The notes beneath the pieces were generated by a model, which saw only the letters and a list, made by a program, of their open reading frames with translations, made no database searches and was not told the DNA's origin. Made by a program: the position numbers and the translations under genes. This document shows, piece by piece, positions 17,938-39,539 of a DNA stretch of 64,000 nucleotides. Where the stretch lies: the sequence record OQ446694.1. One strand, given 5' to 3'. The stretch is from Escherichia phage Killian. Within the stretch, counting starts at the first letter, position 1. Each line of letters begins with the position of its first letter.

Positions 17938-19562
<1,625 letters not shown>

Positions 19563-19802: not shown

Positions 19803-20227
19803 TGCTTCTGATCCCTGAAACTCATGAATTAGTTCTCGAGAATGTCGAAGCACTTATTCCTGAAGCACAGGGTCGCTTTGACGAATTGTCTTCTGCTTTA
19901 AATAAAGACGATATAAATACAATTGTCGAGAATATGCTTGATGATGAAACTGATTTAGCGGTTGCATTAGCTTCTATTAATGAAGATATGCCGCTAAATG
20001 AATTCATCGTTAAACATGTTTCTGCTCGTGGTGAAATTACACGTACCAAAGACCGCAAAACGCGTGAACGTAATGCATTTCAAACCACCGGGCTGTCTAA
20101 AGCAAAACGTAGACAAATTGCTCGCAAAGCTACCAAAACGAAGATTGCCAATCCAGCAGGTCAATCTCGTGCTCAGCGTAAGCGTAAAAAAGCTCTTAAA
20201 CGCCGTAAAGCATTAGGATTAAGCTAA
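19802..20227 (+). CDS. 68: prohead core protein gp68
   Basis: 141 aa, basic C-terminus, position between 67 and 21. Confidence 0.88.
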
Positions 20228-20865
20228 TGAATGAACCCCAATTACTAATTGAAACTTGGGGTCAACCTGGCGAAATTATTGATGGCGTGCCAATGCTTGA
20301 ATCTCATGATGGAAAAGACCTAGGTTTAAAACCCGGTTTATACATCGAAGGAATATTCATGCAAGCGGAAGTCGTCAATAGAAATAAACGTCTTTATCCA
20401 AAACGCATATTAGAAAAAGCGGTAAAAGACTATATCAATGAGCAAGTTTTAACTAAACAAGCTCTCGGAGAATTAAATCATCCTCCACGCGCTAATGTTG
20501 ACCCGATGCAAGCCGCTATCATTATAGAAGATATGTGGTGGAAAGGAAATGACGTATACGGACGAGCTCGTGTTATTGAAGGTGACCATGGTCCTGGAGA
20601 TAAATTAGCAGCTAATATTCGTGCCGGATGGATTCCAGGAGTTTCTTCTCGTGGATTAGGTTCATTGACTGACACAAATAAAGGTTATCGTATCGTAAAC
20701 GAAGGATTCAAATTAACTGTAGGTGTTGATGCAGTATGGGGTCCAAGTGCTCCAGATGCATGGGTAACTCCTAAGGAAATTACCGAATCACAGACGGCGG
20801 AAGCCGATACAAGTGCCGATGACGCCTATATGGCTCTCGCAGAGGCCATGAAAAAAGCGTTATAA
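20227..20865 (+). CDS. 21: prohead core protease gp21
   Basis: 212 aa as in T4. Confidence 0.93.
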   Translation: MNEPQLLIETWGQPGEIIDGVPMLESHDGKDLGLKPGLYIEGIFMQAEVVNRNKRLYPKRILEKAVKDYINEQVLTKQALGELNHPPRANVDPMQAAIIIEDMWWKGNDVYGRARVIEGDHGPGDKLAANIRAGWIPGVSSRGLGSLTDTNKGYRIVNEGFKLTVGVDAVWGPSAPDAWVTPKEITESQTAEADTSADDAYMALAEAMKKAL

Positions 20866-20868
20866 ATA
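20861..20868 (+). promoter_or_regulatory. T4 late promoter for gene 22
   Basis: TATAAATA overlapping gene 21 stop. Confidence 0.7.
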
Positions 20869-20895
20869 TTATTATCTAAACAACAGGACTACAAA

Positions 20896-21705
20896 ATGCT
20901 TAAAGAACAACTGATTGCTGAAGCGCAAAAAATTGATGCTTCCGTTGCTCTTGATAGTATTTTCGAATCAGTTAATATTTCTCCGGAAGCAAAAGAAACT
21001 TTCGGCACTGTATTCGAAGCTACCGTCAAGCAGCACGCCGTTAAATTAGCTGAATCTCATATCGCTAAAATTGCTGAAAAAGCAGAAGAAGAAGTAGAAA
21101 AAAATAAAGAAGAAGCCGAAGAAAAAGCTGAGAAGAAAATCGCTGAGCAAGCTTCTAAATTCATCGACCATCTTGCGAAAGAATGGCTCGCTGAAAATAA
21201 ATTAGCAGTTGATAAAGGCATCAAAGCCGAACTGTTTGAATCCATGCTTGGTGGATTAAAAGAGCTCTTTGTTGAACACAACGTTGTTGTTCCAGAAGAA
21301 TCAGTTGATGTTGTAGCTGAAATGGAAGAAGAGCTGCAAGAACATAAAGAAGAATCAGCTCGTCTGTTCGAAGAACTCAATAAGCGTGACGCATATATCA
21401 ATTATGTGCAGCGTGAAGTGGCATTGAGCGAAAGTACTAAAGATCTGACTGAGTCTCAAAAAGAAAAAGTCTCTGCTCTGGTCGAAGGTATGGATTATTC
21501 AGATGCATTCTCAAGTAAATTGAGTGCCATCGTAGAAATGGTGAAGAAGTCTAATAAAGATGAAAGCACTATTACTGAGGGTATAAATACTCCTGATACT
21601 GAAGCAGCCGGACTGAATTTCGTCACTGAAGCTGTAGAAGATAAAGCTGCACCTGGTGCAGAAGATATTGTAAGTGTATATGCGAAAGTCGCATCTCGTT
21701 TCTAA
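20896..21705 (+). CDS. 22: prohead core scaffold protein gp22
   Basis: 269 aa, E/K-rich coiled coil. Confidence 0.93.
   Translation: MLKEQLIAEAQKIDASVALDSIFESVNISPEAKETFGTVFEATVKQHAVKLAESHIAKIAEKAEEEVEKNKEEAEEKAEKKIAEQASKFIDHLAKEWLAENKLAVDKGIKAELFESMLGGLKELFVEHNVVVPEESVDVVAEMEEELQEHKEESARLFEELNKRDAYINYVQREVALSESTKDLTESQKEKVSALVEGMDYSDAFSSKLSAIVEMVKKSNKDESTITEGINTPDTEAAGLNFVTEAVEDKAAPGAEDIVSVYAKVASRF
21582..21589 (+). promoter_or_regulatory. T4 late promoter inside gene 22 (gene 23 promoter)
   Basis: exact TATAAATA ~135 nt upstream of gene 23 ATG, within the gene 22 ORF. Confidence 0.65.
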
Positions 21706-21723
21706 TTTTAAAGGTTAACACAA

Positions 21724-23289
21724 ATGACTATCAAAACTAAAGCTGAACTTTTGAACAAATGGAAGCCATTACTGGAAGGTGAAGGTTTACCGGAAATTGC
21801 TAATAGCAAACAAGCGATTATCGCTAAAATCTTTGAAAACCAGGAAAAAGATTTCCAGACAGCTCCAGAGTACAAAGACGAAAAAATCGCTCAGGCGTTC
21901 GGTTCTTTCTTAACAGAAGCTGAAATCGGTGGTGACCACGGTTACAACGCTACTAACATTGCTGCTGGTCAGACTTCTGGCGCAGTAACTCAGATTGGCC
22001 CAGCTGTTATGGGTATGGTACGTCGTGCTATTCCTAACCTGATTGCTTTCGATATTTGTGGTGTTCAGCCGATGAACAGCCCGACTGGTCAGGTATTCGC
22101 ACTGCGCGCAGTATATGGTAAAGACCCAATCGCTGCTGATGCTAAAGAAGCATTCCACCCAATGTATGGTCCAGATGCAATGTTCTCTGGTCAGGGTGCT
22201 GCTAAGAAATTCCCAGCTCTGGCTGCTAGCACACAAACCAAAGTAGGTGATATCTATACTCACTTCTTCCAGGAAACTGGTACTGTATATCTGCAAGCTT
22301 CTGCTCAAGTAACAATTAGTTCTACTGCAGATGATGCAGCTAAATTAGATGCTGAAATTAAGAAACAAATGGAAGCTGGCGCATTGGTAGAAATCGCTGA
22401 AGGTATGGCTACTTCTATCGCTGAACTTCAGGAAGGTTTCAACGGTTCTACCGATAACCCATGGAATGAAATGGGCTTCCGTATCGATAAACAAGTTATC
22501 GAAGCTAAATCTCGTCAGCTGAAAGCTGCTTACTCTATCGAATTAGCACAAGACCTCCGCGCTGTTCACGGTATGGATGCTGATGCTGAACTGTCTGGTA
22601 TTCTGGCTACCGAAATCATGTTGGAAATCAACCGTGAAGTTGTTGATTGGATTAACTACTCAGCTCAGGTTGGTAAATCTGGTATGACCCTGACTCCGGG
22701 TTCTAAAGCTGGTGTATTTGACTTCCAGGATCCGATTGATATTCGTGGTGCTCGCTGGGCGGGTGAATCCTTTAAAGCTCTGTTGTTCCAGATTGACAAA
22801 GAAGCAGTTGAAATTGCTCGTCAGACCGGTCGTGGTGAAGGTAACTTCATTATCGCTTCCCGTAACGTAGTTAACGTTCTGGCTTCAGTTGATACTGGCA
22901 TTTCTTATGCTGCACAGGGTCTGGCTACCGGCTTTAACACTGATACTACCAAGTCAGTATTTGCTGGTGTTCTGGGTGGTAAATACCGTGTATATATCGA
23001 CCAGTATGCTAAACAGGATTATTTCACTGTAGGTTATAAAGGTCCGAACGAAATGGATGCTGGTATTTACTACGCTCCATATGTAGCTCTGACTCCGCTG
23101 CGTGGTTCCGATCCGAAGAACTTCCAACCGGTAATGGGATTCAAAACTCGTTACGGTATCGGTATCAACCCATTTGCAGAATCCGCTGCTCAGGCTCCGG
23201 CTTCTCGCATCCAGAGCGGTATGCCTTCTATTCTGAATAGCCTTGGTAAAAACGCTTACTTCCGCCGTGTATATGTTAAAGGTATCTAA
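21724..23289 (+). CDS. 23: major capsid protein gp23
   Basis: 521 aa, starts MTIKTKAELLNKWKPLLEGEG; higher GC and codon bias of a highly expressed gene. Confidence 0.97.
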   Translation: MTIKTKAELLNKWKPLLEGEGLPEIANSKQAIIAKIFENQEKDFQTAPEYKDEKIAQAFGSFLTEAEIGGDHGYNATNIAAGQTSGAVTQIGPAVMGMVRRAIPNLIAFDICGVQPMNSPTGQVFALRAVYGKDPIAADAKEAFHPMYGPDAMFSGQGAAKKFPALAASTQTKVGDIYTHFFQETGTVYLQASAQVTISSTADDAAKLDAEIKKQMEAGALVEIAEGMATSIAELQEGFNGSTDNPWNEMGFRIDKQVIEAKSRQLKAAYSIELAQDLRAVHGMDADAELSGILATEIMLEINREVVDWINYSAQVGKSGMTLTPGSKAGVFDFQDPIDIRGARWAGESFKALLFQIDKEAVEIARQTGRGEGNFIIASRNVVNVLASVDTGISYAAQGLATGFNTDTTKSVFAGVLGGKYRVYIDQYAKQDYFTVGYKGPNEMDAGIYYAPYVALTPLRGSDPKNFQPVMGFKTRYGIGINPFAESAAQAPASRIQSGMPSILNSLGKNAYFRRVYVKGI

Positions 23290-23304
23290 TCTTTGACGAT
23301 TTAA

Positions 23305-23335
23305 GGGACCTTCGGGTCCCTTTAGTTGTTTTTAT
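23305..23335 (+). terminator. rho-independent terminator after gene 23
   Basis: gggacc-ttcg-ggtccc then T-rich tract. Confidence 0.75.
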
Positions 23336-23337
23336 GG

Positions 23338-23345
23338 TATAAATA
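23338..23345 (+). promoter_or_regulatory. T4 late promoter for gene 24
   Basis: exact TATAAATA 27 nt upstream of gene 24 ATG. Confidence 0.7.
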
Positions 23346-23372
23346 AATCATATAAACCAAAAGGAAAGCGCA

Positions 23373-24656
23373 ATGGCTAAAATCAACGAACTTCTGCGCG
23401 AATCAACCACAACGAATAGCAACTCAATCGGTCGCCCAAATCTCGTTGCTTTGACTCGCGCTACCACTAAATTAATATATTCTGACATTGTAGCAACGCA
23501 AAGAACTAATCAACCTGTTGCTGCTTTTTATGGTATCAAATACCTTAACCCAGATAACGAATTTACATTTAAAACTGGTGCTACTTACGCCGGCGAAGCT
23601 GGGTATGTAGACCGAGAACAAATCACAGAATTAACAGAAGAGTCTAAATTAACTCTCAATAAAGGCGATTTATTCAAATATAATAATATCGTTTATAAAG
23701 TATTAGAAGATACACCATTTGCTGATATTGAAGAAAGCGATTTAGAATTAGCTCTTCAGATTGCAATTGTTCTTTTAAAGGTTCGTCTATTTTCTGATGC
23801 TGCAGTAACAAGCAAATTTGAAAGCTCTGATAGTGAAATTGCGGATGCTAGATTCCAGATTAATAAATGGCAAACCGCAGTTAAATCTCGTAAACTTAAA
23901 ACTGGCATCACAGTCGAATTAGCACAAGATTTAGAAGCAAATGGATTCGATGCTCCTAATTTCTTGGAAGATTTGCTTGCAACTGAAATGGCGGATGAAA
24001 TCAATAAAGATATTCTACAGTCTTTGATTACAGTATCAAAACGCTATAAAGTTACAGGAATTACTGATACTGGATTCATTGATTTGAGTTATGCATCTGC
24101 ACCTGAAGCTGGTCGTTCATTATACCGAATGGTGTGTGAAATGGTTTCACATATTCAGAAAGAATCAACTTATACAGCAACGTTCTGTGTTGCTTCAGCT
24201 CGTGCCGCTGCGATTCTTGCTGCATCAGGTTGGTTAAAACATAAACCAGAAGATGACAAATATCTTTCACAAAATGCCTACGGGTTCTTAGCTAATGGTT
24301 TACCGCTTTATTGCGATACCAACAGTCCATTAGATTATGTAATCGTTGGCGTAGTAGAAAATATTGGTGAAAAAGAAATTGTTGGATCAATTTTCTATGC
24401 TCCGTATACAGAAGGTCTTGACTTAGATGACCCTGAACATGTAGGTGCATTTAAAGTTGTAGTTGATCCAGAAAGTTTGCAGCCATCTATCGGTTTATTA
24501 GTTAGATATGCTTTATCTGCAAATCCTTACACTGTAGCAAAAGATGAAAAAGAAGCAAGAGTAATTGATGGTGGAGACATGGATAAAATGGCGGGTCGTT
24601 CAGATTTGTCTGTTTTATTAGGTGTTAAGTTACCAAAAATTATCATTGATGAATAA
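23373..24656 (+). CDS. 24: capsid vertex protein gp24
   Basis: 427 aa; paralog of gp23. Confidence 0.93.
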   Translation: MAKINELLRESTTTNSNSIGRPNLVALTRATTKLIYSDIVATQRTNQPVAAFYGIKYLNPDNEFTFKTGATYAGEAGYVDREQITELTEESKLTLNKGDLFKYNNIVYKVLEDTPFADIEESDLELALQIAIVLLKVRLFSDAAVTSKFESSDSEIADARFQINKWQTAVKSRKLKTGITVELAQDLEANGFDAPNFLEDLLATEMADEINKDILQSLITVSKRYKVTGITDTGFIDLSYASAPEAGRSLYRMVCEMVSHIQKESTYTATFCVASARAAAILAASGWLKHKPEDDKYLSQNAYGFLANGLPLYCDTNSPLDYVIVGVVENIGEKEIVGSIFYAPYTEGLDLDDPEHVGAFKVVVDPESLQPSIGLLVRYALSANPYTVAKDEKEARVIDGGDMDKMAGRSDLSVLLGVKLPKIIIDE

Positions 24657-24660
24657 AACA

Positions 24661-24688
24661 AAGGGACCGAAAGGTCCCTTTTTATTTA
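24661..24688. terminator. bidirectional terminator between convergent genes 24 and rnlB
   Basis: agggacc-gaaa-ggtccct hairpin flanked by A-run on one side and T-run on the other. Confidence 0.75.
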
Positions 24689-25690
24689 ACTTACCAATTC
24701 AATCCAAGCCGGACGAAGTACATCTTGTACCATTTTAACTAATTCCTTCTTAATCAAAGAAGGATTATCCGCTTGAGTTAGAGTAATACCTTCACGAGAA
24801 GTTTCTTCCAAAATATCTTGAACCGTTAGTCCCATCACCTTTCCAAAATCTTTTGGACCGATTTCGCCAATTTTAGAAATAACGTTATTTACTCGGTTCA
24901 GTGTAACGTAACAAGCTAAAATTCCAACCAATTTGTTATCAGCTTCTGACAGTTCAACTTTAGCTTTAATAGGCTTATCAGACTTTTTCTTTTCACTAAA
25001 TTTAGAGTTCTTGCATTTGATAGCTACGCGATTGCCATTAGGCATCCAAGAAGGATAACAAGGTTTCAATACATATCCTTCAGCGGTAAATACTTCGCCT
25101 TTTACTTCAGCATTCCAAACGCATTTATTCGCATCAACTAATCCAGCATGGTCTACTGTAAAATTATAATCTTGGACGACAGAATCTAAATCATTTGGCA
25201 ATTTAATAAGCTCTTCAAATTTACCGCGACCTAAAAGTGGAGCCATTTTAAATTTAAATGTATTACAGAATGATTCCATCATATAATCATCGACATAAGT
25301 CACATCACCACTTTCTGTAGTAACAATAATGTCAAATACATAAAAATCTTTATCGCCATAATCGACATTCTTCTGAATGCCAGGTCCGGCAAATTCACCG
25401 AAGACTTGATAAGATACAACCGCTGAAGTTTCCATAATATCTTGTACTGCTTTAATGGAATCAGCGTAATTCTTCAAAATAATTTCATACCCAAAGAAAT
25501 CTTCAGCAGGAAGAATAGGACCAGTTCGTTTAGCACAAGTTACTTTATCACGCTCAATAATCAATGAGAAATTTGTGCCATGAATCTTTTCACGAGCTAC
25601 CCATTCGCCACCAGTCAATCCTAAACTATAAAGTTTTTCAATGAATTTAGAATTGTAATGATTTTCAAGACTGCTATACTTTTTAAACAT
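24686..25690 (-). CDS. rnlB: RNA ligase 2
   Basis: 334 aa, starts [16 protein letters not shown], contains ligase KIHG lysine motif. Confidence 0.93.
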
Positions 25691-25699
25691 AATTAATCC

Positions 25700-25978
25700 T
25701 CAAAATGTAATTTCTAACCAATCACCATCACGCTGATCACTATTGACTTTAAAGCTAAATCCTTCTTTTCTCAGCCAATCACCAATTTCTTCAGTAATCA
25801 ATTTATCGCGAGCAGTACAATAATAACTAAAATATGTTTTACCTTGTTCAGCTGCTTTATTAGCAAGTTCCGAAAAATCTTTAATAAAACACTCTAACTT
25901 AAACTGTTTACTTTTAAGTGCTTTTTCACGTAATTGATTAGCAAAAGATTCATTTTCATAAAGATCATACTGTTCCAT
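25700..25978 (-). CDS. hypothetical protein (T4 24.2-like)
   Basis: 92-aa ORF in the T4 24.2 position. Confidence 0.6.
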   Translation of the reverse strand: MEQYDLYENESFANQLREKALKSKQFKLECFIKDFSELANKAAEQGKTYFSYYCTARDKLITEEIGDWLRKEGFSFKVNSDQRDGDWLEITF

Positions 25979-25981
25979 TTT

Positions 25982-26167
25982 TCACCTTTTATTAATATGT
26001 CTTTTTCTATAGACAACTTTTTCTCGAGTTTCAAATTTATTCTTAGCAGTCATAGCTCGAGCCCATAATACAGCCACTTCTTTCGCCTGTAAGTTTAATT
26101 CACGAGCAATTTCAATGAATGACTTTCCAGACTCATGAAGAGTAAACACCACAACCTCAGTTCTCAT
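25982..26167 (-). CDS. hypothetical small protein, possible HTH (T4 24.3-like)
   Basis: 61-aa ORF; helix-turn-helix-like segment SFIEIARELNLQAKEVA. Confidence 0.55.
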   Translation of the reverse strand: MRTEVVVFTLHESGKSFIEIARELNLQAKEVAVLWARAMTAKNKFETREKVVYRKRHINKR

Positions 26168-26245
26168 ATCAATCTCACGTTATCGAGTTGATGCCATTAT
26201 ATACATCATTTTCTGAGTATGTTTTGTGTGCTTTCAAAATGAAGA

Positions 26246-26263
26246 AAGGGGCCGAAGCCCCTT
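26246..26263 (-). terminator. terminator downstream of hoc
   Basis: aggggc-cgaa-gcccct hairpin; on the - strand followed by a T-rich tract. Confidence 0.6.
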
Positions 26264-26273
26264 ATGATTATGA

Positions 26274-27692
26274 TTATGGATAGGTATAGATGATACCAGT
26301 TTCTAAAGCAGTTTTATGAATGATGTATCCATTACGTGATTCTTGAACATCAACTTCTGGATAGTCTTTCATCATCTTCTGAAGAGTGTAACGATGCAGG
26401 TAGTATTTACTGTCTGGATCTTCAGTTTTCCAATCTTTACCTTCTTCGGTCATTTTTTGGATTTCATCCATAACCCACCAACCGCACCAGATATAAGCTG
26501 AAGTACGATGTGGAAGAGGATGAACATAAGGCAATTCACCTTCTGGTTCCGGAGCAACTTTATCAGTTACCTGAACTTGGCCTGTTGCTTTAACTGTTTT
26601 ACTATCATAGTCGGTTGCTGTAACGACAGCAGTAACTTCAATAGTTTGACTTCCAATAGATGAGGTGTCAACGGTGTATACGTTAGTTGACCCTTCTACA
26701 GGAGAAGAATCTTTCTTCCATGAGTATTCGATTTGTGCTTCTTCTGGAGCATCAGTGACATTAGCCGTAAATGTAGCCGAAGCATCTTGCTGAACGTTAA
26801 TAGAAGGAGGAGTCAATGTAACCTGCGGATTCATTGTCTTCTTATTAACTGTCAATGATACTTCATTAGAAGTAACTTCCTTTTCATTGTAATTTTCAGC
26901 CGTTACTTGGGCTACACACTTAACTGTTTTAGCTCCAACTGTGGTAGGAGTATAGTTAAATGTAGTAGTAGTTTCTCCATCGACCAGAGAACCGTCAACA
27001 TACCACTGATACGTAGCAGACGCTCCTGGTGGCTGTGAATCCAAGGCAGCAGTAAATTGAACTGGGGTTCCAATTACTCCGGCAGCAGGATTAGCAGGAG
27101 TTACGGCTAACGTAGTTGTCTGTGTTTTCTTATTAACTGTTAATGATACTTCATTAGAAGTAACTGTTTTTGCGTCATAATCTGTTGCTGTTACTTGAGC
27201 TACACACTTGATTTTTTTAACTCCGCTTGTGTCAGGAGTGTAATTGAATGTAGCGTCAGTTGCTTCGTCTACAGGAGAACCGTCAACGTGCCATTGATAC
27301 GTAGCGTTTGCACCTGATGGCTGTGAAGCTAAGGCAGCGGTAAATTCAATTGGAGTTCCAATCACTCCAGCATCAGGGCTACCAGGAGTTACAGCTAAAG
27401 TAGTTGTTTGTGTTTTATTTTTGACTGTGATAGTTGTCGTAGTTTCTGCTGTTTCAGGATCAGCTTCTGGAACTGTATTTGTTGCAACCACCTTAATAGT
27501 CTTTTGACCTGCAGGTCCTTTTAGTACATAGCTAAAAGTTGCTTCAGCTCCATCCTGTGGAACATTATCTACACTCCAAGCATAGGTAATAGTTCCACCT
27601 TCAGTTTGACCACTGGGTGTAGCAGTAAACTGCTTGGTTTCATCAATAACTCCTGTTGGGGTTTTAGGAGTTATATCAACTGTAAAAGTCAT
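26274..27692 (-). CDS. hoc: head outer capsid protein Hoc, with an extra tandem Ig-like domain
   Basis: 472 aa (recalled T4 Hoc 376 aa); two ~96-aa near-identical internal repeats. Confidence 0.88.
   Translation of the reverse strand: MTFTVDITPKTPTGVIDETKQFTATPSGQTEGGTITYAWSVDNVPQDGAEATFSYVLKGPAGQKTIKVVATNTVPEADPETAETTTTITVKNKTQTTTLAVTPGSPDAGVIGTPIEFTAALASQPSGANATYQWHVDGSPVDEATDATFNYTPDTSGVKKIKCVAQVTATDYDAKTVTSNEVSLTVNKKTQTTTLAVTPANPAAGVIGTPVQFTAALDSQPPGASATYQWYVDGSLVDGETTTTFNYTPTTVGAKTVKCVAQVTAENYNEKEVTSNEVSLTVNKKTMNPQVTLTPPSINVQQDASATFTANVTDAPEEAQIEYSWKKDSSPVEGSTNVYTVDTSSIGSQTIEVTAVVTATDYDSKTVKATGQVQVTDKVAPEPEGELPYVHPLPHRTSAYIWCGWWVMDEIQKMTEEGKDWKTEDPDSKYYLHRYTLQKMMKDYPEVDVQESRNGYIIHKTALETGIIYTYP
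26841..27416 (-). repeat. tandem direct duplication (2 x ~288 bp) inside hoc
   Basis: 26841-27128 and 27129-27416 are near-identical in DNA and encode repeats TQTTTLAVTP...SLTVNKK. Confidence 0.85.
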
Positions 27693-27701
27693 AAGTTATC
27701 C

Positions 27702-28382
27702 TTATTTTAATGTTACGAAAGAAGAATTGCGTGTTTCACGAATTAGAACTGATCCGTCACGATTAATGTAGTAAATTAAGCTAAATAAAGTTTGATGCGC
27801 AGACGCATGTTCAAAACTGGTTGGGCGAGATTTCCAATCTGGAGTTTCAGCAATCCATTGGTAAATCCACCAAGGAACAGTGCAGAATCCTGGATTTTTT
27901 CCAATCAGCTGAAGATTTGGGCTAAAGTTTTCCGGAAGAGTAAATACAGACGGCTTTTCAGATTCAATAATCTCAGCTACAGCCTGTTCGAATTTTTCTT
28001 CAACAAAAGGAGTATCTTCAATCAAAACATCGGTATTTTCAGGAATTTTATCCGTTTCTACTACTTCAATTTTAATGTCAGATTTAACCGGAGAATCAAT
28101 CAGAAGTGCTGCCTCTGGATTGACTTCTTCATCGTCATATTTTAATCCGTCTGCGGCATCAGCAGCATCGATTAAGTCTTTAATAGATAACCCATCAGTC
28201 TCTGGCATAGGTTCACTAGCGAGCTTCTGGAGGGCTTCTTCAATATCATTAACGATATTATCAAAAGATTTATTCTTTTTGACCTTTATACCAAACTGTT
28301 CAGCATATTCAGCTAATTTAGCTTTAGCTTCTTTATTATCATCAAGAGCCTTCAGCTTTGCAATATAATCTTTATCTATCAT
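27702..28382 (-). CDS. inh: inhibitor of prohead protease
   Basis: 226 aa as in T4 Inh; position between hoc and uvsW. Confidence 0.85.
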   Translation of the reverse strand: MIDKDYIAKLKALDDNKEAKAKLAEYAEQFGIKVKKNKSFDNIVNDIEEALQKLASEPMPETDGLSIKDLIDAADAADGLKYDDEEVNPEAALLIDSPVKSDIKIEVVETDKIPENTDVLIEDTPFVEEKFEQAVAEIIESEKPSVFTLPENFSPNLQLIGKNPGFCTVPWWIYQWIAETPDWKSRPTSFEHASAHQTLFSLIYYINRDGSVLIRETRNSSFVTLK

Positions 28383-28395
28383 AATATTTCCTCAG

Positions 28396-28403
28396 TATAA
28401 ATA
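28396..28403 (+). promoter_or_regulatory. T4 late promoter for uvsW
   Basis: exact TATAAATA 30 nt upstream of uvsW ATG. Confidence 0.65.
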
Positions 28404-28432
28404 TAGATATATTTATTACATGGTATTTAAAC

Positions 28433-29944
28433 ATGACTGACATTAAAGTACATTTTTATGATTTTAGTCACGTGAGAATTGATTGCGAAGAAAGTACATT
28501 TCATGAACTCCGTGATTTCTTTAGCTTTGAAGCTGATGGGTATCGTTTTAATCCGAAATACAAATATGGCCACTGGGATGGACGAATTCGTCTTTTAGAT
28601 TATAATCGCCTTCTTCCATTCGGTTTAGTCGGGCAAATTAAAAAGTTCTGTGATAACTTTGGCTATAAAGCCTGGATTGACCCGCAAATTAACGAAAAAG
28701 AAGAATTATCAAGAAAAGATTTTGATGAATGGCTTTCTAAATTAGAAATCTATTCAGGAAATAAAAGAATTGAACCGCATTGGTATCAAAAAGATGCAGT
28801 GTTCGAAGGATTAGTTAATCGTCGTAGAATTCTTAATCTTCCAACATCCGCAGGTAAATCTTTAATTCAAGCTTTGCTCGCTCGGTATTATTTGGAAAAT
28901 TATGAAGGCAAAATTCTTATCATTGTTCCAACAACTGCTCTGACAACTCAGATGGCTGATGACTTTGTTGACTATCGTTTATTCAGTCATGCAATGATAA
29001 AGAAAATCGGCGGTGGAGCATCAAAAGATGATAAATATAAAAATGATGCACCGGTCGTTGTTGGTACATGGCAAACTGTAGTAAAACAACCAAAAGAATG
29101 GTTCTCACAGTTTGGAATGATGATGAATGATGAATGTCATCTTGCTACAGGAAAAAGTATTTCATCTATCATATCAGGTTTAAATAACTGTATGTTTAAA
29201 TTTGGTTTGTCTGGTTCATTGCGCGATGGCAAAGCTAATATCATGCAGTATGTTGGAATGTTCGGTGAAATATTTAAGCCAGTAACGACCTCTAAATTAA
29301 TGGAAGATGGACAAGTAACTGAGTTAAAAATTAATAGTATTTTTCTTCGCTATCCCGATGAGTTCACTACTAAATTAAAGGGAAAAACTTACCAAGAAGA
29401 AATAAAAATTATTACTGGGCTCAGTAAAAGAAATAAATGGATCGCTAAATTAGCTATTAAGCTTGCGCAAAAAGATGAAAATGCTTTTGTCATGTTTAAA
29501 CACGTATCGCACGGTAAAGCTATTTTCGATTTAATTAAAAATGAATACGATAAAGTTTATTACGTATCAGGGGAAGTTGATACCGAAACCCGCAATATAA
29601 TGAAAACCTTAGCTGAAAACGGTAAAGGAATAATTATAGTAGCTAGTTATGGTGTATTTTCTACCGGTATTTCAGTTAAAAATCTGCATCACGTTGTTTT
29701 AGCACACGGTGTTAAATCTAAAATTATTGTATTGCAAACAATAGGTCGCGTATTACGTAAGCATGGTTCTAAAACAATCGCAACAGTCTGGGACCTCATA
29801 GATGACGCGGGCGTAGTTTCTAAATCAAAAACATCTTCTAAAAAATACTCGCATTTAAACTATCTTTTAAAACATGGACTTGATCGTATTCAGCGTTATG
29901 CTGATGAGAAGTTTAATTATGTGATGAAAGAGGTTAAACTTTGA
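28433..29944 (+). CDS. uvsW: UvsW DNA/RNA helicase (SF2)
   Basis: 503 aa; Walker A PTSAGKS and DECH box. Confidence 0.95.
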   Translation: MTDIKVHFYDFSHVRIDCEESTFHELRDFFSFEADGYRFNPKYKYGHWDGRIRLLDYNRLLPFGLVGQIKKFCDNFGYKAWIDPQINEKEELSRKDFDEWLSKLEIYSGNKRIEPHWYQKDAVFEGLVNRRRILNLPTSAGKSLIQALLARYYLENYEGKILIIVPTTALTTQMADDFVDYRLFSHAMIKKIGGGASKDDKYKNDAPVVVGTWQTVVKQPKEWFSQFGMMMNDECHLATGKSISSIISGLNNCMFKFGLSGSLRDGKANIMQYVGMFGEIFKPVTTSKLMEDGQVTELKINSIFLRYPDEFTTKLKGKTYQEEIKIITGLSKRNKWIAKLAIKLAQKDENAFVMFKHVSHGKAIFDLIKNEYDKVYYVSGEVDTETRNIMKTLAENGKGIIIVASYGVFSTGISVKNLHHVVLAHGVKSKIIVLQTIGRVLRKHGSKTIATVWDLIDDAGVVSKSKTSSKKYSHLNYLLKHGLDRIQRYADEKFNYVMKEVKL

Positions 29945-30633
29945 ATTATAAATTAATATATGATAATTTAATTAATAGAGCCCAGAATCGGGCTCGCCTT
30001 AATGGATACACTGAAACTCATCATATAATTCCTAGATGTATGGGTGGTACAGATGATAAGTGTAATTTGGTAGAACTAACAGCTGAAGAGCATTTTATAG
30101 CTCATAAACTTTTAGCTAAAATTCATCCAAACCATTACGGTATAATTAAAGCCGTTATATGTATGGGAATGAATTCAAATACTCATGAAAGACACGTTAA
30201 TAAATCTTACGCCTGGGAACGTCGTAAAATGGCAAAACTTCAATCAGGTGAAGGTAATCCATTTTACGGAAAACACCATACGGAAGAACATAAACAATAT
30301 ATGTCAAAACTCATGAAAAATCGTCCAATTACGTGGGGAAGTAAAATTAGTAAAACTAAAAGAATGAACCCAACAAAATGGACTGAAGAAGCTAAAAGAT
30401 TGCATTCTATCAATCAATCAGGTAAAAATAATGGCATGTATGGAAGGAAACATTCCGCTAAATCTATTCAGAAAATTAAAGATAACATGCCAGATAATTC
30501 AGGAGCTAATAACCCAGCTGCTAAACCTATAGAAGTAAATGGTGTTAAGTATAAATGCATGAAAGATGCTTCTAAAGCTACTGGATTATCAATGTACAAA
30601 CTAAGAATACTTAGAAAAACAGTTAATTTATAA
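29941..30633 (+). CDS. free-standing HNH homing endonuclease (NUMOD3 repeats, C-terminal HTH)
   Basis: 230 aa; ETHHIIPRCMGG...NLVELTAEEHFIAH HNH motif; start is TTG overlapping the uvsW stop. Confidence 0.8.
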   Translation: MNYKLIYDNLINRAQNRARLNGYTETHHIIPRCMGGTDDKCNLVELTAEEHFIAHKLLAKIHPNHYGIIKAVICMGMNSNTHERHVNKSYAWERRKMAKLQSGEGNPFYGKHHTEEHKQYMSKLMKNRPITWGSKISKTKRMNPTKWTEEAKRLHSINQSGKNNGMYGRKHSAKSIQKIKDNMPDNSGANNPAAKPIEVNGVKYKCMKDASKATGLSMYKLRILRKTVNL

Positions 30634-30658
30634 GGGCTTCGGCCCTTTGGAGAAAAAG

Positions 30659-30889
30659 ATGTTACTAGAATTTAAACAATTTCTTTATGAAGCTTCTATT
30701 GATGAATTTATGGGTAAAATTGCCTCTTGTCAAACAATAGAAGGTCTAGAAGAACTTGAAGCTTATTATAAGAAAAGAGTTAAAGAAACTGAATTAAAAG
30801 ATACTGATGACATCTCAGTCAGAGATGCTTTGGCAGGAAAAAGAGCTGAATTAGAAGATTCAGACGATGAAGTAGAAGAAAACTTTTAA
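30659..30889 (+). CDS. uvsW.1: UvsW.1 small acidic protein
   Basis: ATG at 30659 preceded by GGAG gives 76 aa starting MLLEFKQFLYEASIDEF; track start 30647 is a TTG. Confidence 0.85.
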   Translation: MLLEFKQFLYEASIDEFMGKIASCQTIEGLEELEAYYKKRVKETELKDTDDISVRDALAGKRAELEDSDDEVEENF

Positions 30890-30944
30890 ATTAAAAAAGG
30901 CCCAACCAAAAAGGAAGGGCCAAAACTATAGACTAAAGGTCACA

Positions 30945-31112
30945 CTATAGCAAAAGTTGAGTTTCATTTAATTGTTCTTCCGAACTTTCTGAAACTGGTA
31001 GTTCTTTAATGTAATTATAACAAGGCCCAGGATGTACAGGACCTTTGTCTGTTTCAACAACCAATGCAGAATCGATTGGAGTTTTACAGACAACGCAAAT
31101 CTTATCTGACAT
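30945..31112 (-). CDS. small zinc-ribbon-like protein (T4 uvsY.-2-like)
   Basis: 55-aa ORF absent from the track, found by hand: MSDKICVVCKTPIDS...PGPCYNY; AGGAG 6 nt upstream. Confidence 0.65.
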   Translation of the reverse strand: MSDKICVVCKTPIDSALVVETDKGPVHPGPCYNYIKELPVSESSEEQLNETQLLL

Positions 31113-31140
31113 GATTGTCTCCTCTAAATTATATATCTAT

Positions 31141-31365
31141 TTATATAACTCTCATATGCATATCAATGCCCATATCTTTAGAATAAAAATATTCATCAAG
31201 ATATCCGGCAAATTTTCCTTTAACATAAAGTACATCTTCACCACATGGATGATCGGCCAGGATACGAATATCCTGACGCTTGAGATTATACTTTTTCATT
31301 AAGAATTGAATTTCCGTTTCGAATTCTTCTTCATAATTAAAAGCATCATCAATGCTATATTTCAT
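31141..31365 (-). CDS. hypothetical protein (T4 uvsY.-1-like)
   Basis: 74 aa; start overlaps uvsY stop. Confidence 0.75.
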   Translation of the reverse strand: MKYSIDDAFNYEEEFETEIQFLMKKYNLKRQDIRILADHPCGEDVLYVKGKFAGYLDEYFYSKDMGIDMHMRVI

Positions 31366-31778
31366 TATTTTCCAGCCTCAAATGCTCGCATGTCTTGAAT
31401 ATGCTTAATAGCAAATCCGCGTGATTTAATAGCATCAAGAGCTCCGCTACAGAAATCCAATAAAATTCCCCAATACTGCAATGAAGTATCAACTTTTAAA
31501 ACATCCTTATCAGCTGATAGAACTGTCTTCATTTCTGATTTCTCATAACGGTCCATACTAAATTCATCACCATCTCCTCGTCCCGAGTAGTAGTCTAATT
31601 TAGCTTTAAGAGCAACTTTTTTCTGTGCTTCAATTCTAAGCATTTCCTTTTTAATACTTGAATGCTTATTGAGCCATTTACTATATAACATCACATTATT
31701 AGCTGCTTCATACTGTAATTTAGTCGAATCTATAAACACATCTTTCTTCAATTCTTCTTGAAGATCTTCTAATTTCAT
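31365..31778 (-). CDS. uvsY: UvsY recombination mediator
   Basis: 137 aa as in T4 UvsY. Confidence 0.93.
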   Translation of the reverse strand: MKLEDLQEELKKDVFIDSTKLQYEAANNVMLYSKWLNKHSSIKKEMLRIEAQKKVALKAKLDYYSGRGDGDEFSMDRYEKSEMKTVLSADKDVLKVDTSLQYWGILLDFCSGALDAIKSRGFAIKHIQDMRAFEAGK

Positions 31779-31818
31779 ATTGTTCTCTATTCAATTGTTA
31801 TTGGATGGACTTAGATTC

Positions 31819-31846
31819 ATTATACCACGTTTATACGTGAAGCATT
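31819..31846 (-). promoter_or_regulatory. MotA-dependent middle promoter for uvsY
   Basis: on - strand: TGCTTCA MotA box, 13 nt, TATAAT, ~40 nt upstream of uvsY ATG. Confidence 0.6.
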
Positions 31847-32243
31847 ATACTCTGTTACTGGAAGCCAGTTGTAGTTTTATCTGCTCAATATCATCAGGGT
31901 TATCAATGACTGAAAAGCGTATTTCTACTATCAGAGTATAATCATCATAAACCGGTATTACATTAACTGCTAATTTATCAATACGTGGCTCGTAGTTTCT
32001 TACTGCGCTTTCAATGTTACGCTCAACAGTATCAGCAGTAAGAGGAGTCATATTCTCAAAAAGCTGATCAGATAAATCGCATCCAAATTCTGGGTCAAAT
32101 GGCCTTGACCCTTTCCTGGTTGTAATAATTCCTAAAAGGCTATTTTTAATTGACCTTAATCCAAGGGATCTAGAAACATCTTTATCCCAATCCATTTTCA
32201 TTTCTGGGTCAATGTCAGAATAAAGCTTATTAATATTTGCCAT
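31845..32243 (-). CDS. 25: baseplate wedge protein gp25
   Basis: 132 aa as in T4. Confidence 0.92.
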   Translation of the reverse strand: MANINKLYSDIDPEMKMDWDKDVSRSLGLRSIKNSLLGIITTRKGSRPFDPEFGCDLSDQLFENMTPLTADTVERNIESAVRNYEPRIDKLAVNVIPVYDDYTLIVEIRFSVIDNPDDIEQIKLQLASSNRV

Positions 32244-32869
32244 TACAATAGCTCAAAGAATTCTTTGAGTCCTCTTATTACATGAGCGTGAGTTTTTCCA
32301 CACTCTGGACACTTAATTGGAACAGCCAAATAAACAGTAGGCTTTAAAAGCATATCTTTTATAGCTACAATATCTGACTCTGTGATGATAGAATATAAAT
32401 CTTCCAGTTCTTTTTCATTTAAGTCTTCAACTGGAATGCTTTCACCGTTAGCATGAATCGTTTCTATACATGATACTATCATGTGGGCTATATTTTTATC
32501 ATCAAAAATTTTAGGGTAATGGAACTTAATTTTAATGTCACCCAGTGTATACCAGAGGTCTTCTGGTGCATCTATTTGTGTATGTAATAGATTTATATGG
32601 GTTGGTATTTCAGCTCCACAGGTGCACTTCCAGGAGTTTTCATGATTAACTTCTCCAAGAGAATGCGCCCATAAATGAATCAGCAGTAGTTCTGATTCTT
32701 GACGGTTTAAATCTTTTGCATTTGTGCATTCTTTGATTAGCTTTTTAACGATCTCTTCTACTGAACCGTTCTTTTTAGCAGTAATAAGCTCTAGATATTC
32801 TTTAAGAGTAAATGCGCGACAGTTGATTATTTTAGAACCAACTCTCACATCAAATTTGTATTCATACAT
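32243..32869 (-). CDS. 26: baseplate hub protein gp26
   Basis: 208 aa as in T4. Confidence 0.9.
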
Positions 32870-32890
32870 ATTTAGCTCCTTTATTTATCA

Positions 32891-32902
32891 TATTTATAAA
32901 TA
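32891..32902. promoter_or_regulatory. overlapping divergent late promoters for genes 26 and 51
   Basis: TATTTATAAATA: TATAAATA on + (32895-32902) and on - (32891-32898). Confidence 0.65.
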
Positions 32903-32919
32903 GAATAAAAGGAGCATCT

Positions 32920-33672
32920 ATGGCAAACATTATTCGTTGTAAATTACCAGATGGTGTTCATCGTTTTAAACCATTTACGGTAGAAGATTATCGAGATTTT
33001 TTGTTAGTTCGAAACGATATAGAACATCGGTCACCACAAGAACAAAAAGAAATAATTGCTGATTTAATTGCCGATTATTTTGGAGACTATCCGAAGACTT
33101 GGCAACCATTTATATTTTTGCAGGTATTTGTAGGGTCAATAGGTAAAACTAAAGTACCGGTCACATTTGCATGTCCAAAATGCAAAAAAGAAAAGACAGT
33201 TCCATTTGAAATATATCAAAAAGAATTAAAGGAACCTGTTTTTGATGTAGCTAATGTTAAAATTAAATTAAAGTTTCCTTCTGAGTTTTATGAAAATAAA
33301 GCAAAGATGATTACTGAAAATATTCATTCCGTTCAAGTAGATGAAATGTGGTATGATTGGAAGGAAATTAGCGAATCGAGTCAAATAGAACTTGTTGATG
33401 CCATCGAGATAGAAACATTAGAAAAAATTCTCGATGCAATGAATCCTATTAATTTAACATTGCATATGTCGTGTTGTAATAAGTATGTAAAAAAATACAC
33501 TGATATAGTAGATGTGTTTAAGCTATTAGTTAATCCAGATGAGATATTTACTTTTTATCAAATTAATCACACACTTGTAAAAAGTAATTATAGCTTAAAT
33601 TCAATAATGAAAATGATTCCTGCTGAGCGCGGATTCGTATTAAAACTGATTGAGAAGGATAAACAACAATGA
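32920..33672 (+). CDS. 51: baseplate hub assembly catalyst gp51
   Basis: 250 aa (T4 gp51 ~249 aa). Confidence 0.9.
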
Positions 33673-34844
33673 GTATGTTGCAACGCCCCGGATATCCAAA
33701 TCTCAGCGTTAAATTATTTGAGAGTTATGACGCTTGGAGTAATAATAGATTTGTTGAATTAGCTGCTACTATTACCACATTAACTATGCGGGATTCTCTT
33801 TATGGTCGAAATGAAGGAATGCTGCAGTTTTATGATTCTAAAAATATCCATACAAAAATGGATGGAAATGAAATAATTCAGATTTCTGTAGCTAATGCAA
33901 ACGATATTAATAATGTTAAAACACGAATTTATGGATGTAAGCACTTTTCCGTATCGGTAGATTCAAAGGGTGATAACATCATTGCTATTGAATTGGGAAC
34001 TATTCATTCTATAGAAAATCTTAAATTTGGCAGACCGTTTTTCTCTGATGCAGGTGAATCTATAAAGGAAATGCTTGGTGTCATTTATCAGGATCGCACG
34101 TTATTAACTCCAGCAATAAATGCCATAAATGCCTATGTTCCTGATATTCCATGGACTAGCACATTTGAAAACTATTTGTCGTATGTCAGAGAAGTTGCTC
34201 TAGCTGTAGGAAGTGACAAATTTGTATTTGTATGGCAAGACATCATGGGAGTTAACATGATGGACTATGATATGATGATAAATCAAGAACCATATCCAAT
34301 GATTGTCGGTGAGCCATCTTTAATAGGTCAATTCATCCAAGAATTAAAATATCCATTAGCATATGATTTCGTTTGGTTGACTAAATCGAATCCTCATAAA
34401 CGCGACCCAATGAAAAATGCTACTATTTATGCTCATTCATTTTTAGATTCTTCATTGCCAATGATTACTACAGGAAAGGGCGAAAACTCTATTGTAGTGT
34501 CAAGGTCAGGTGCTTATTCTGAAATGACTTATAGGAATGGCTATGAAGAAGCTATTCGTCTTCAAACTATGGCACAATACGATGGCTATGCTAAATGTTC
34601 TACTGTCGGTAATTTTAACTTGACTCCTGGCGTTAAAATTATTTTTAATGATAGTAAAAACCAATTTAAAACAGAATTTTACGTTGATGAAGTTATCCAT
34701 GAATTATCCAATAATAATTCAGTAACTCATCTATATATGTTCACTAATGCAACGAAACTGGAAACAATAGACCCAGTTAAGGTTAAAAATGAATTTAAAT
34801 CTGATACTACCACTGAAGAAAGTAGTTCTTCCAATAAGCAATAA
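33669..34844 (+). CDS. 27: baseplate hub protein gp27
   Basis: 391 aa as in T4. Confidence 0.93.
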
Positions 34845-35322
34845 AGAAGTTTCTATTCCTAAAATGGGTCTTAAACATTATAACATTTTAAAAGATGTTA
34901 AAGGTCCTGATGAAAATTTAAAACTTCTTATTGATTCTATTTGTCCGAATTTATCACCGGCAGAAGTTGATTTCGTTTCTATTCATTTATTGGAATTTAA
35001 TGGAAAGATTAAATCTCGTAAAGAAATAGATGGTTATACTTATGACATTAATGATGTTTATGTATGCCAAAGATTAGAATTTCAATACCAAGGAAATACA
35101 TTTTATTTTAGACCTCCTGGAAAATTTGAGCAATTTTTGACAGTAAGCGATATGTTATCTAAATGCTTGCTTAAGGTCAATGATGAAGTTAAAGAAATTA
35201 ATTTTCTTGAGATGCCAGCATTTGTATTAAAATGGGCAAATGATATTTCTACAACTTTAGCAATTCCTGGCCCTAATGGTCCAATAACTGGAATTGGCAA
35301 TATTATTGGATTATTTGAATGA
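34789..35322 (+). CDS. 28: baseplate hub distal protein gp28
   Basis: 177 aa; ATG start overlapping the 3' end of gene 27. Confidence 0.88.
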
Positions 35323-37091
35323 AAAAGCCACAAGAAATGCAAACGATGCGTAGAAAAGTTATTTCAGATAATAAACCAGTTCAGGAAGCGGCTAAATCCG
35401 CTTCTAACACTTTATCTGGGCTTAATGACATTTCTACAAAATTGGATGATGCTCAAGCTGCTTCTGAATTAATAGCTCAAACCGTTGAAGAAAAATCGAA
35501 TGAAATAATTGGAGCAATTGACAATGTAGAAAGCGCAGTGAGTGATACTACTGCTGGTTCTGAGTTAATTGCTGAAACTGTAGAAATTGGCAACAATATT
35601 AATAAAGAAATCGGTGAATCACTCGGAAGTAAATTAGATAAATTAACGAGTTTACTAGAACAAAAAATTCAAACAGCTGGAATTCAACAGACAGGAACCA
35701 GCTTAGCTGTAGTCGAAAGTGCTATTCCCGTTAAAGTTGTCGAGGATGATACAGCTGAATTTGTTGGTCCATTATTACCAGCTCCTGAAGCAGTTAATAA
35801 TGATCCTGACGCTGATTTTTTCCCTGCCCCTCAACCAGTTGAACCTAAGCGAGAGTCACCGGAAGAAAAACAGAAAAAAGAAGCATTTAATTTAAAATTA
35901 TCTCAAGCTTTAGATAAATTAACAAAGACTGTTGATTTTGGATTTAAAAAATCCATTTCAATTACTGATAAAATATCAAGCATGCTATTTAAGTATACTG
36001 TCAGTGCTGCTATTGAAGCTGCTAAAATGGTTGCATTAATAATGGCTGTTGTTATTGGAATAGACCTACTGATGGTTCATTTTAAATATTGGTCAGATAA
36101 ATTTTCAAAAGCCTGGGATTTGTTTAGCACTGATTTTAAAACTTTTTCAAGCGAAACCGGAACTTGGGGTCCTTTATTACAGAGCATCTTTGAATCTATT
36201 GATGAAATTAAAAAGTTCTGGGAAGCGGGAGATTGGGGCGGTTTGACGGTAGCTATTGTAGAAGGGCTTGGAAAGGTTCTTTATAATTTAGGAGAACTTA
36301 TTCAGCTTGGAATGGCTAAATTATCAGCAGCAATTCTTCGAGTTATTCCTGGTATGAAAGATACTGCTGACGAAGTAGAAGGAAGAGCACTAGAAAATTT
36401 CCAAAATTCTACTGGAGCATCTCTCAATAAAGAAGACCAGGAAAAAGTTGCAAATTATCAAGATAAACGAATGAACGGAGACCTTGGTCCGATAGCAAAA
36501 GGATTAGATAAAATTGCTAATTGGAAAACTCGTGCATCTAACTGGATTCGTGGCGTTGATAATAAAGAAGCACTAACTACCGATGAAGAACGCGCAGCAG
36601 AAGAAGAAAAATTAAAGCAACTTTCACCTGAAGAAAGAAAAAATGCTTTAATGAAGGCTAATGAAGCGCGCGCCGCGATGATTCGCTTTGAAAAATATGC
36701 TGATTCGGCTGATATGAGTAAAGACTCAACAGTTAAATCAGTTGAAGCTGCCTATGAAGACCTTAAAAAACGGATGGATGACCCGGATTTAAATAATTCA
36801 CCGGCAGTTAAAAAAGAACTTGCTGCTAGATTTTCTAAAATTGATGCTACTTATCAAGAGCTCAAGAAAAATCAGCCTAATGCCAAACCTGAAACTTCTG
36901 CTAAATCGCCAGAAGCAAAACAAGTCCAGGTAATAGAAAAGAACAAAGCACAGCAAGCTCCTGTTCAACAAGCATCTCCTTCAATCAATAATACTAATAA
37001 TGTTATTAAGAAAAATACTGTCGTTCATAATATGACACCCGTAACGAGCACAACTGCTCCTGGTGTATTTGGCGCGACTGGAGTTAATTAA
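35319..37091 (+). CDS. 29: tail tape measure / baseplate hub protein gp29
   Basis: 590 aa as in T4. Confidence 0.92.
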   Translation: MKKPQEMQTMRRKVISDNKPVQEAAKSASNTLSGLNDISTKLDDAQAASELIAQTVEEKSNEIIGAIDNVESAVSDTTAGSELIAETVEIGNNINKEIGESLGSKLDKLTSLLEQKIQTAGIQQTGTSLAVVESAIPVKVVEDDTAEFVGPLLPAPEAVNNDPDADFFPAPQPVEPKRESPEEKQKKEAFNLKLSQALDKLTKTVDFGFKKSISITDKISSMLFKYTVSAAIEAAKMVALIMAVVIGIDLLMVHFKYWSDKFSKAWDLFSTDFKTFSSETGTWGPLLQSIFESIDEIKKFWEAGDWGGLTVAIVEGLGKVLYNLGELIQLGMAKLSAAILRVIPGMKDTADEVEGRALENFQNSTGASLNKEDQEKVANYQDKRMNGDLGPIAKGLDKIANWKTRASNWIRGVDNKEALTTDEERAAEEEKLKQLSPEERKNALMKANEARAAMIRFEKYADSADMSKDSTVKSVEAAYEDLKKRMDDPDLNNSPAVKKELAARFSKIDATYQELKKNQPNAKPETSAKSPEAKQVQVIEKNKAQQAPVQQASPSINNTNNVIKKNTVVHNMTPVTSTTAPGVFGATGVN

Positions 37092-37099
37092 GGAATAAT

Positions 37100-39159: not shown

Positions 39160-39163
39160 CAAT

Positions 39164-39193
39164 GGGGACCTTTCGGTCCCCATGTTTTTATTT
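39164..39193 (+). terminator. rho-independent terminator after gene 54
   Basis: ggggacc-tttc-ggtcccc then T-rich tract. Confidence 0.75.
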
Positions 39194-39478: not shown

Positions 39479-39509
39479 TTTGTGTTCCTCATGTTATGTC
39501 AGTAAGATT

Positions 39510-39539
39510 ATTATAACACAGCACGAGGGACTTGTAAAC
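39510..39539 (-). promoter_or_regulatory. T4 early-type promoter (GTTTAC -35, TATAAT -10)
   Basis: on - strand GTTTAC, 18 nt, TATAAT; second copy of this cassette at 55028-55057. Confidence 0.6.

Follow-up and report, generated by a model that had tools for sequence, protein, structure and literature searches.

The hoc gene of Escherichia phage Killian carries, in tandem, two copies of a domain that is single in phage T4, and the question raised by this locus is how old the repeat is and how it came about. The window analysed here is the whole stretch of 64,000 nucleotides from sequence record OQ446694.1. Within it hoc occupies positions 26274-27692 of the minus strand, as an open reading frame of 1,419 nt that is intact over 472 codons and ends in a stop codon at 26274-26276. 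We refer to this form of the gene, which encodes a head decoration protein of 472 aa, as the long allele. All features described below are likewise on the minus strand.

The gene product can be identified from its sequence as a T4-type Hoc, the highly immunogenic outer capsid or head decoration protein: it has C-terminal homology to the capsid-binding domain, a string of Ig-like domains of the PKD / I-set type and a conserved position in the genome. The order of the flanking reading frames, rnlB - 24.2 - 24.3 - hoc - inh - uvsW, is that of the T4 annotation and is also found in Shigella phage vB_SsoM_113, and the spacing of 9 nt between inh and the start of hoc is the same in T4. Shigella phage sb1 has a hoc gene that shares 95.3% nucleotide identity with it, and hundreds of matching records carry a Hoc annotation. 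A phmmer comparison with the T4 Hoc chains in the PDB (5VF3 and others) gave E = 2.2e-215, the best stretch pairing residues 273-472 with residues 177-376 of T4. The exact 472-aa protein is present in the database as WEU67952.1 (Escherichia phage Killian, 'putative head outer capsid protein').

The N-terminal Ig-like domain 1 (D1, aa 1-93, 27414-27692) shares 94% aa identity with D1 of T4 and was confidently modelled as a beta-sandwich. It is followed by the two repeat units, D2a (domain 2 copy 1, aa 94-189, 27126-27413), which is A-type and belongs to clade A of the tree described below, and D2b (domain 2 copy 2, aa 190-285, 26838-27125), which is B-type and belongs to group B. Domain 3 (D3, aa 286-379, 26556-26837), also modelled as a beta-sandwich, is 86% identical to T4 D3 in amino acids, and the protein ends with a linker and, at its C terminus, the domain that binds the capsid (aa 380-472, 26277-26555), recognised by homology to T4. 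This last domain corresponds to T4 Hoc residues ~281-376 and matches T4 with 95.3% nucleotide and ~98% amino acid identity, with 2 non-synonymous differences; nearly all of its columns are invariant in an alignment of 28 Hoc proteins.

When the two proteins are aligned globally, a single clean gap of 96 aa, equivalent to one entire domain 2, separates Killian Hoc from the 376-aa T4 protein, so that the length difference given in a preliminary description of this locus holds. The corresponding masses are 50.8 kDa and 40.4 kDa, a difference of ~10.4 kDa. The Pfam PKD model scored 37.4 bits (cut-off 23.5), with its best stretch in D2b (aa 196-265), and stretches matching Ig_3 and I-set were located in D3 (aa 289-374), both with scores below the cut-offs. 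An AlphaFold2 model, for which the 28 Hoc sequences served as input, contains four beta-sandwiches (mean pLDDT 84; block pLDDT ~83-96 across residues 1-370), of which D2a and D2b share the same pattern of strands, and a helical C-terminal domain of lower confidence. Foldseek matched the model to four-Ig fragments (Dscam1, ICAM-5) and to the crystal structure of RB49 Hoc (3SHS, E = 2.8e-10). The 96-aa insertion and the Pfam, AlphaFold2 and Foldseek evidence therefore all point to four Ig-like domains in the 472-aa Hoc against three in T4 Hoc, the extra one being a whole domain 2, in agreement with what had been presumed.

Tandem Repeats Finder reported an array of 2.1 copies at 26835-27428, with a period of 288 nt, matches of 79% and no indels (0%), and a direct-repeat search returned 288-nt copies at 26835-27122 and 27123-27410 with 79% identity. 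Random pairs of 288-nt segments from the window reached a mean identity of 27.0% (sd 2.8) and a maximum of 39.9% in ~20,000 pairs, compared with 78.8% for D2a and D2b, so the repeat is real. The preliminary description was thus right about a head-to-tail, in-frame repeat inside hoc, and the two peptides that it quoted are exactly those given by translation; its boundaries, 26841-27128 and 27129-27416, lie 3 nt off the codon register, a shift of no consequence where the units are in tandem. Its characterisation of the copies as near-identical does not stand. D2a and D2b differ at 61 of 288 nucleotides and at 24 of 96 residues (75% protein identity), and at third codon positions the identity falls to 67.7%. 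This is still well above the ordinary level for the protein, since D1, D2 and D3 share 29-40% aa identity with one another.

The best-conserved DNA of the repeat lies at the 3′ ends of the units, where 38 of 39 nt are identical between D2a (27127-27165, encoding VTSNEVSLTVNKK) and its partner tract in D2b (26839-26877), a pair that is a candidate substrate for unequal recombination. Both tracts include an SLT motif, at 27138-27146 (aa 183-185) in D2a and at 26850-26858 (aa 279-281) in D2b.

The synonymous divergence between the two copies is considerable. The dS of D2a against D2b is 0.64, larger than that between Killian and T4 for any of the nearby sequences compared (D1 0.42, D3 0.46, C-terminal domain 0.24, inh 0.14, rnlB 0.24). 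The omega value for the pair is 0.24, and within clades mean dN is 0.07 and mean dS 0.40; both copies are maintained by purifying selection. The relationships of the copies were examined in a bootstrapped NJ tree of 29 D2 units (288 nt) from 18 hoc genes picked from BLAST rows, namely those of Killian, T4, RB14, vB_SsoM_113, Elenatom, APCEc01, SF, moskry, ime09, pSs-1, Sf23, NHEP11, sb1, UGKSEcP1 and four IMG/VR contigs. The slur14 gene (L035), which has three D2 units (3x), was left out of the tree, and IMG_L004 (378 aa) was included in the tree and left out of the dS tables. All first copies from the alleles with two (2x) or three units fall in clade A (bootstrap 91), which also takes in the single D2 of RB14, vB_SsoM_113 and an IMG/VR contig (IMG_L005). 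Group B contains all later copies, and it is also where the unit falls in T4, Elenatom, APCEc01, SF and two IMG/VR phages, which have only one D2. D2a is accordingly grouped with first copies from other phages (bootstrap 91-100) and D2b is placed elsewhere, and in none of the 18 genes do the gene's own D2 copies pair with each other in the tree.

Mean dS between A and B is 0.90 (minimum 0.55), compared with 0.40 within A and 0.41 within B, although the lineages of the tree are approximate and ages derived from dS may be distorted by recombination, because the single-copy D2 domains are mosaics of segments. For the same set of genes mean dS is 0.28 in D1, 0.28 in D3 and 0.17 in the C-terminal domain. 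A similar picture emerges from 29 database proteins with two units: first and second copies are 79.1% identical within the same gene (range 74-85%) and 80.2% identical between different genes, whilst first copies from different genes share 88.4% identity. There was no excess of within-gene identity, and neither concerted evolution nor a fresh duplication was seen in any sampled allele. Since four independent lines of evidence agree (the dS of D2a and D2b, the NJ tree, the A/B dS and the identities between first and second copies), the D2 duplication is not recent, and D2a and D2b are members of two old, separately evolving lineages, A and B, which have diverged, and not a recent duplicate.

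The long allele is one member of a series. Hoc proteins retrieved from a collection of 5.8 billion proteins fall into length classes of 376-379, 468-472 and 567-570 aa, which correspond to 1, 2 and 3 D2 units, and the steps between alleles are whole units of exactly 288 nt, or 96 aa, giving 376, 472 and 568 aa. The arrangements represented in the tree are a single A or B (376 aa), A-B (472 aa) and A-B-B (one 568-aa allele), and A precedes B in every multi-unit allele of the tree (eight 2x and one 3x). Hoc thus shares with copy-number-variable tandem domain arrays, such as those of bacterial surface adhesins, the whole-unit steps between alleles, and lacks their near-identical units, which permit frequent slippage or recombination, and their concerted evolution: the units of an array are 74-85% identical in amino acids within genes.

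The long form is also common. In the phage collection 680 records match the gene, and of the full-length alleles in an evenly spaced sample of these, 24 were long and 27 short, so that long hoc accounts for about half of the full-length alleles sampled. A 44-nt probe for the D2-to-D2 junction identified tandem D2 in at least 49 records, a count that is only a lower bound because the junctions are too variable for E <= 1e-5, and we prefer the evenly spaced sample as the estimate of prevalence. Among the matches listed, the 3x form was represented by one full-length tblastn piece in 23 records. The long A-B allele recurs across many Tequatrovirus records and is present in one Mosigvirus, moskry, whose GenBank record carries a 533-nt repeat_region annotation within hoc.

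Evidence that these alleles move between genomes comes from the closest relative over positions 20000-40000, Shigella phage vB_SsoM_113, which is 97.7% identical overall and 98-99% identical in the flanks of hoc. Its hoc encodes a 376-aa protein with a single A-type D2 that is 87.5% identical to D2a and with a D3 that is 92.6% identical, and hoc therefore has the appearance of a recombination island, diverged amid otherwise near-identical genomes. Furthermore, almost all combinations of A-like and B-like segments are found in single-copy D2 domains. Together with the divergence of the vB_SsoM_113 gene, this mosaicism indicates that both hoc alleles and segments of D2 are exchanged between similar genomes.

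We consider it highly probable that the long hoc allele class is built from the old A and B lineages, with unequal recombination as the likely source of changes in copy number. In the most likely scheme, unequal homologous recombination at the conserved ends of D2 units, during mixed infection or replication, would alter the copy number between 1, 2 and 3. Entire hoc alleles are also transferred among near-identical genomes by recombination. Unequal recombination is the simplest route to a gain or loss of units, given that the alleles differ by multiples of 288 nt and the unit ends are conserved. Gain of Ig-like domains is a recurrent event in the Hoc family, since more distant Hoc lineages have independent duplications. 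In the protein of IMG/VR locus L007 (471 aa) a stretch of 80 residues shares 81% identity with the one that lies 94 residues downstream of it, whereas the same comparison in its 377-aa relatives gives at most 31/80 (39%).

The longest exact runs shared by D2a and D2b are 24 nt and 14 nt, both inside the 39-nt unit ends. Exact tracts of this size are short, which counts against a recombination mechanism, and the argument for that mechanism draws solely on the integer length classes and the conserved ends.

Two explanations for the first appearance of the A-B tandem are about equally likely. The first, to which we give a little less than an even chance, is that one ancient duplication produced A and B before the hoc genes of Tequatrovirus and Mosigvirus diverged from an ancestral allele. 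The long form would in that case be ancestral, the short T4-like alleles secondary deletions in which either A or B was retained, and the 3x alleles later re-expansions. The constant order of A then B in the tree is consistent with a single origin, as is the first copy's middle segment, which is A-type in 29 of 30 2x proteins and 8 of 8 3x proteins. Deletions crossing over in the conserved ends are expected to leave single-copy units that are purely A or purely B, and these are found, as are single-copy units whose segments run from A to B (ABB 4, AAB 2, -AB 4). Harder to accommodate are the single-copy units that run from B to A or are otherwise mosaic (B-A 4, -BA 1, ABA 1), so that general recombination blurs the signal. 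Moreover, proteins of distant Hoc lineages are mostly ~375 aa long, which suggests that three Ig-like domains are the older state.

The second explanation, which we would also place below even odds though not far below, is that A and B were divergent alleles of a single-copy D2 and that one unequal crossover between them in a co-infection made A-B, which then spread. Single-copy A and single-copy B are both present in Tequatrovirus, T4-like phages recombine freely, and the island of divergence at hoc lies in genomes that are 98-99% identical. A tandem that was ~20% diverged at birth would also account for the fact that near-identical copies are found in no allele. However, this origin requires that a dS of ~0.9 was reached in one domain when D1, D3 and the C-terminal domain show only 0.17-0.28, and by itself it leaves the independent duplications of distant Hoc lineages unexplained.

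By comparison, a recent tandem duplication of domain 2 in situ, which would have left young and barely diverged paralogues and which the preliminary description had favoured, is very improbable. The exact 288-nt period, the lack of indels, the perfect register with the domains and the 75% protein identity of the copies, against 29-40% for other pairs of Hoc Ig-like domains, would all fit such an event. But with 61 of 288 nucleotides changed and a dS exceeding every nearby value against T4, the copies are not near-identical; nor are they closest relatives, since D2a joins first copies from other phages and not D2b, and two copies from one gene show no higher identity than two from different genes. 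The arrangement is also not limited to one shallow lineage, as it spans two genera and a large fraction of the records. An assembly or annotation artefact, such as a mis-assembled repeat or the collapsed mixture of two phage genotypes, is scarcely conceivable: repeats are a classical cause of assembly errors, and hoc is split or frameshifted in some records (BYEP02, Ec_YwIITB1), but with 21% of positions differing between the copies each read has a unique placement, the 472-codon frame is intact, and the architecture recurs in genomes sequenced independently of one another and in metagenome contigs, hundreds in all.

T4 Hoc (NP_049793, 376 aa; PDB 5VF3, 8T1X and others) is encoded at the same locus and shares D1, D3 and the C-terminal domain with Killian Hoc, but has one D2, mostly B-type, in place of the A-B pair of Killian, which accounts for the additional 96 aa. 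In a three-way comparison the first two thirds of T4 D2 resembled B and the last third resembled A, and we therefore considered whether it is a deletion chimera, or the long form a duplicated T4-like unit. We rejected this reading, because second copies of the B clade, such as those of moskry and NHEP11, likewise have the A-like C-terminal motif (TATDYDA..), and the AENYNEKE motif is the derived state of one B subclade.

Other known Hoc proteins are closer to that of Killian. The 472-aa proteins of sb1, ime09, HP3, pSs-1 and Sf23 (Tequatrovirus) and of moskry (Mosigvirus) have an identical architecture and length, and their genes are 89-95% identical to Killian hoc in nucleotides, differing only by point changes and by mosaicism of D2 and D3 segments. 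The 568-aa proteins of UGKSEcP1/2, YUEEL01, slur03/14 and ESh16 have three D2 units and hence five Ig-like domains, with D1, D3 and the C-terminal domain as in Killian and an additional B-type unit between the outer D2 units. The UGKSEcP1 gene matches D2a with its first D2 (95.5% nucleotide identity) and D2b with its last (99.3%), and its C-terminal domain is 100% identical; judged by these identities, the protein is essentially Killian Hoc with one inserted B unit. The likeness to the N-terminal Ig domains of RB49 Hoc (PDB 3SHS) is at the level of the fold, with ~15% sequence identity and three domains.

More widely, Hoc homologues are known to have a conserved C-terminal anchor that bears between 1 and 10 Ig-like domains (PMC10385173), and the number and arrangement of domains vary among T4-like phages (PMC11150434). 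PhiPNJ-9 Hoc is without D3, that of Serratia phage Muldoon has 10 Ig domains in 1174 aa and that of Enterobacter phage PG7 has 1 (PMC10385173; PMC11853027; PMC11150434). These proteins likewise combine a C-terminal anchor with a variable number of Ig domains, but differ from Killian Hoc in copy number or in the domains concerned. A literature search returned only general statements of this kind about domain number, and no description of the Tequatrovirus 2x/3x D2 alleles or of the A and B lineages. The 472-aa allele itself is abundant in GenBank, where its annotations read Hoc or PKD-domain protein, and is already known and ordinary. The A and B lineages and the series of one, two and three units are a modest population-genetic refinement and not a new kind of feature.

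Hoc is a model protein for the adherence of phages to mucus and a common display scaffold on T4 capsids. In T4 its C-terminal domain binds the centre of gp23 hexamers, one monomer on each and 155 per capsid, and its Ig-like domains form a fibre ~180 Å long; the protein is dispensable for infectivity (PMC10385173). By analogy with T4, the C-terminal domain of Killian Hoc would seat one molecule centrally on each gp23 hexamer, from which the four Ig-like domains would extend to form a fibre that exceeds the T4 fibre by one domain. A lengthening by about one Ig domain is a reasonable expectation from the modelled architecture.

Effects on adhesion are less easily predicted. Hoc adheres to mucin glycans (PMC11150434, PMC11853027), and residues S183, L184 and T185 in domain 2 of PhiPNJ-9 Hoc were reported to be essential for its binding to MUC2/fucose (PMC11853027). 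The SLT motif is part of the invariant end of D2, and it occurs twice in the 472-aa protein. Any functional consequence of this doubling is speculative, because the critical residues of PhiPNJ-6 Hoc were located in domain 1 (PMC11150434).

A bolder reading, which we think unlikely, is that D2 is a recombining copy-number cassette under balancing or diversifying selection, in which the ancient A and B lineages differ in glycan or mucin specificity and the number of copies tunes reach and adherence. If this were true, the long allele would not only double the SLT motif but also unite two specificities in one fibre, and the split between A and B (dS ~0.9 vs 0.17-0.28) would reflect long-term selection at the interface between phage and animal. 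The natural range of 1-3 D2 copies matters when therapeutic phages are chosen by mucosal retention. The occurrence of extra D2 copies in nature also suggests that the Hoc fibre tolerates added internal Ig modules, which would be useful for engineering.

Downstream of the gene, a terminator-like GC-rich hairpin at 26246-26263 on the minus strand lies 11 nt 3′ of the hoc stop codon. It has 7 pairs, 5 of them G-C, followed by the T-run TCTTCATTTT, and is a candidate terminator by consensus match only.

Compared with Shigella phage vB_SsoM_113, the closest genome over window positions 20000-40000 and one that carries a short 376-aa Hoc with a single A-type D2 (the second Ig-like domain), the window contains two local islands of divergence, one within hoc (26498-27497) and a second at 36248-38247. 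Identity falls to about 91-94% in both islands, against 98-99% to vB_SsoM_113 in the rest of the region around them, and the pattern suggests mosaic recombination at hoc and at 36.2-38.2 kb.

In T4 the GIY-YIG homing endonuclease gene segE lies between inh and uvsW, whereas the window has a gap of only 50 nt at this place (28383-28432), and comparison of the ORFs with the T4 annotation found no segE there. On the plus strand, a 230-aa ORF at 29941-30633 (NUMOD3, E = 1.3e-13, with a weak HNH match) is a predicted homing-endonuclease-like gene squeezed in between uvsW (28433-29944) and uvsW.1 (30647-30889; Pfam UvsW-1). A homing endonuclease is annotated in the equivalent place in vB_SsoM_113.

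Among more distant Hoc proteins, the 471-aa homologue at 1501-2907 of the IMG/VR locus IMGVR_UViG_2974546015_000001 (48% identical) has its own internal Ig-domain repeat, with 65 of 80 residues identical at an offset of 94, starting from residue 186. No such repeat was found in its 377-aa relatives at three further loci (L008, L009 and L013), and the duplication is apparently independent and younger. The observation also takes in the locus L006.

Two alleles in the protein collection are outliers: the two D2 copies of P0038 (472 aa) share only 56% identity, and P0040 (567 aa) has only 54% identity to the query by BLASTP. These point to D2-like lineages besides the two old ones, A and B. The name of 'Escherichia phage T4_ev151' (LR597660.1) points to a T4 derivative, yet its hoc (107091-108794) is a three-unit allele encoding 568 aa.

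Immediately past the hoc stop codon, on the minus strand, lies a terminator-like hairpin, AAGGGGCTTCGGCCCCTT, with a T-run (within 26246-26278), and a short repeat, TTATGA x2.8, spans the stop codon in the same interval. The 61-aa 24.3 homologue (25982-26167, minus strand) matches DUF2774 (E = 1.4e-29); its similarity to GerE/LuxR-type helix-turn-helix domains is weak and under the cut-off.

The 32-kb record MG010123.1, titled 'Staphylococcus phage SAJK-IND', is probably mislabelled or contaminated: at 19517-19558 it has a D2-D2 junction of T4-type hoc, where the annotation reads 'capsid and scaffold protein'.
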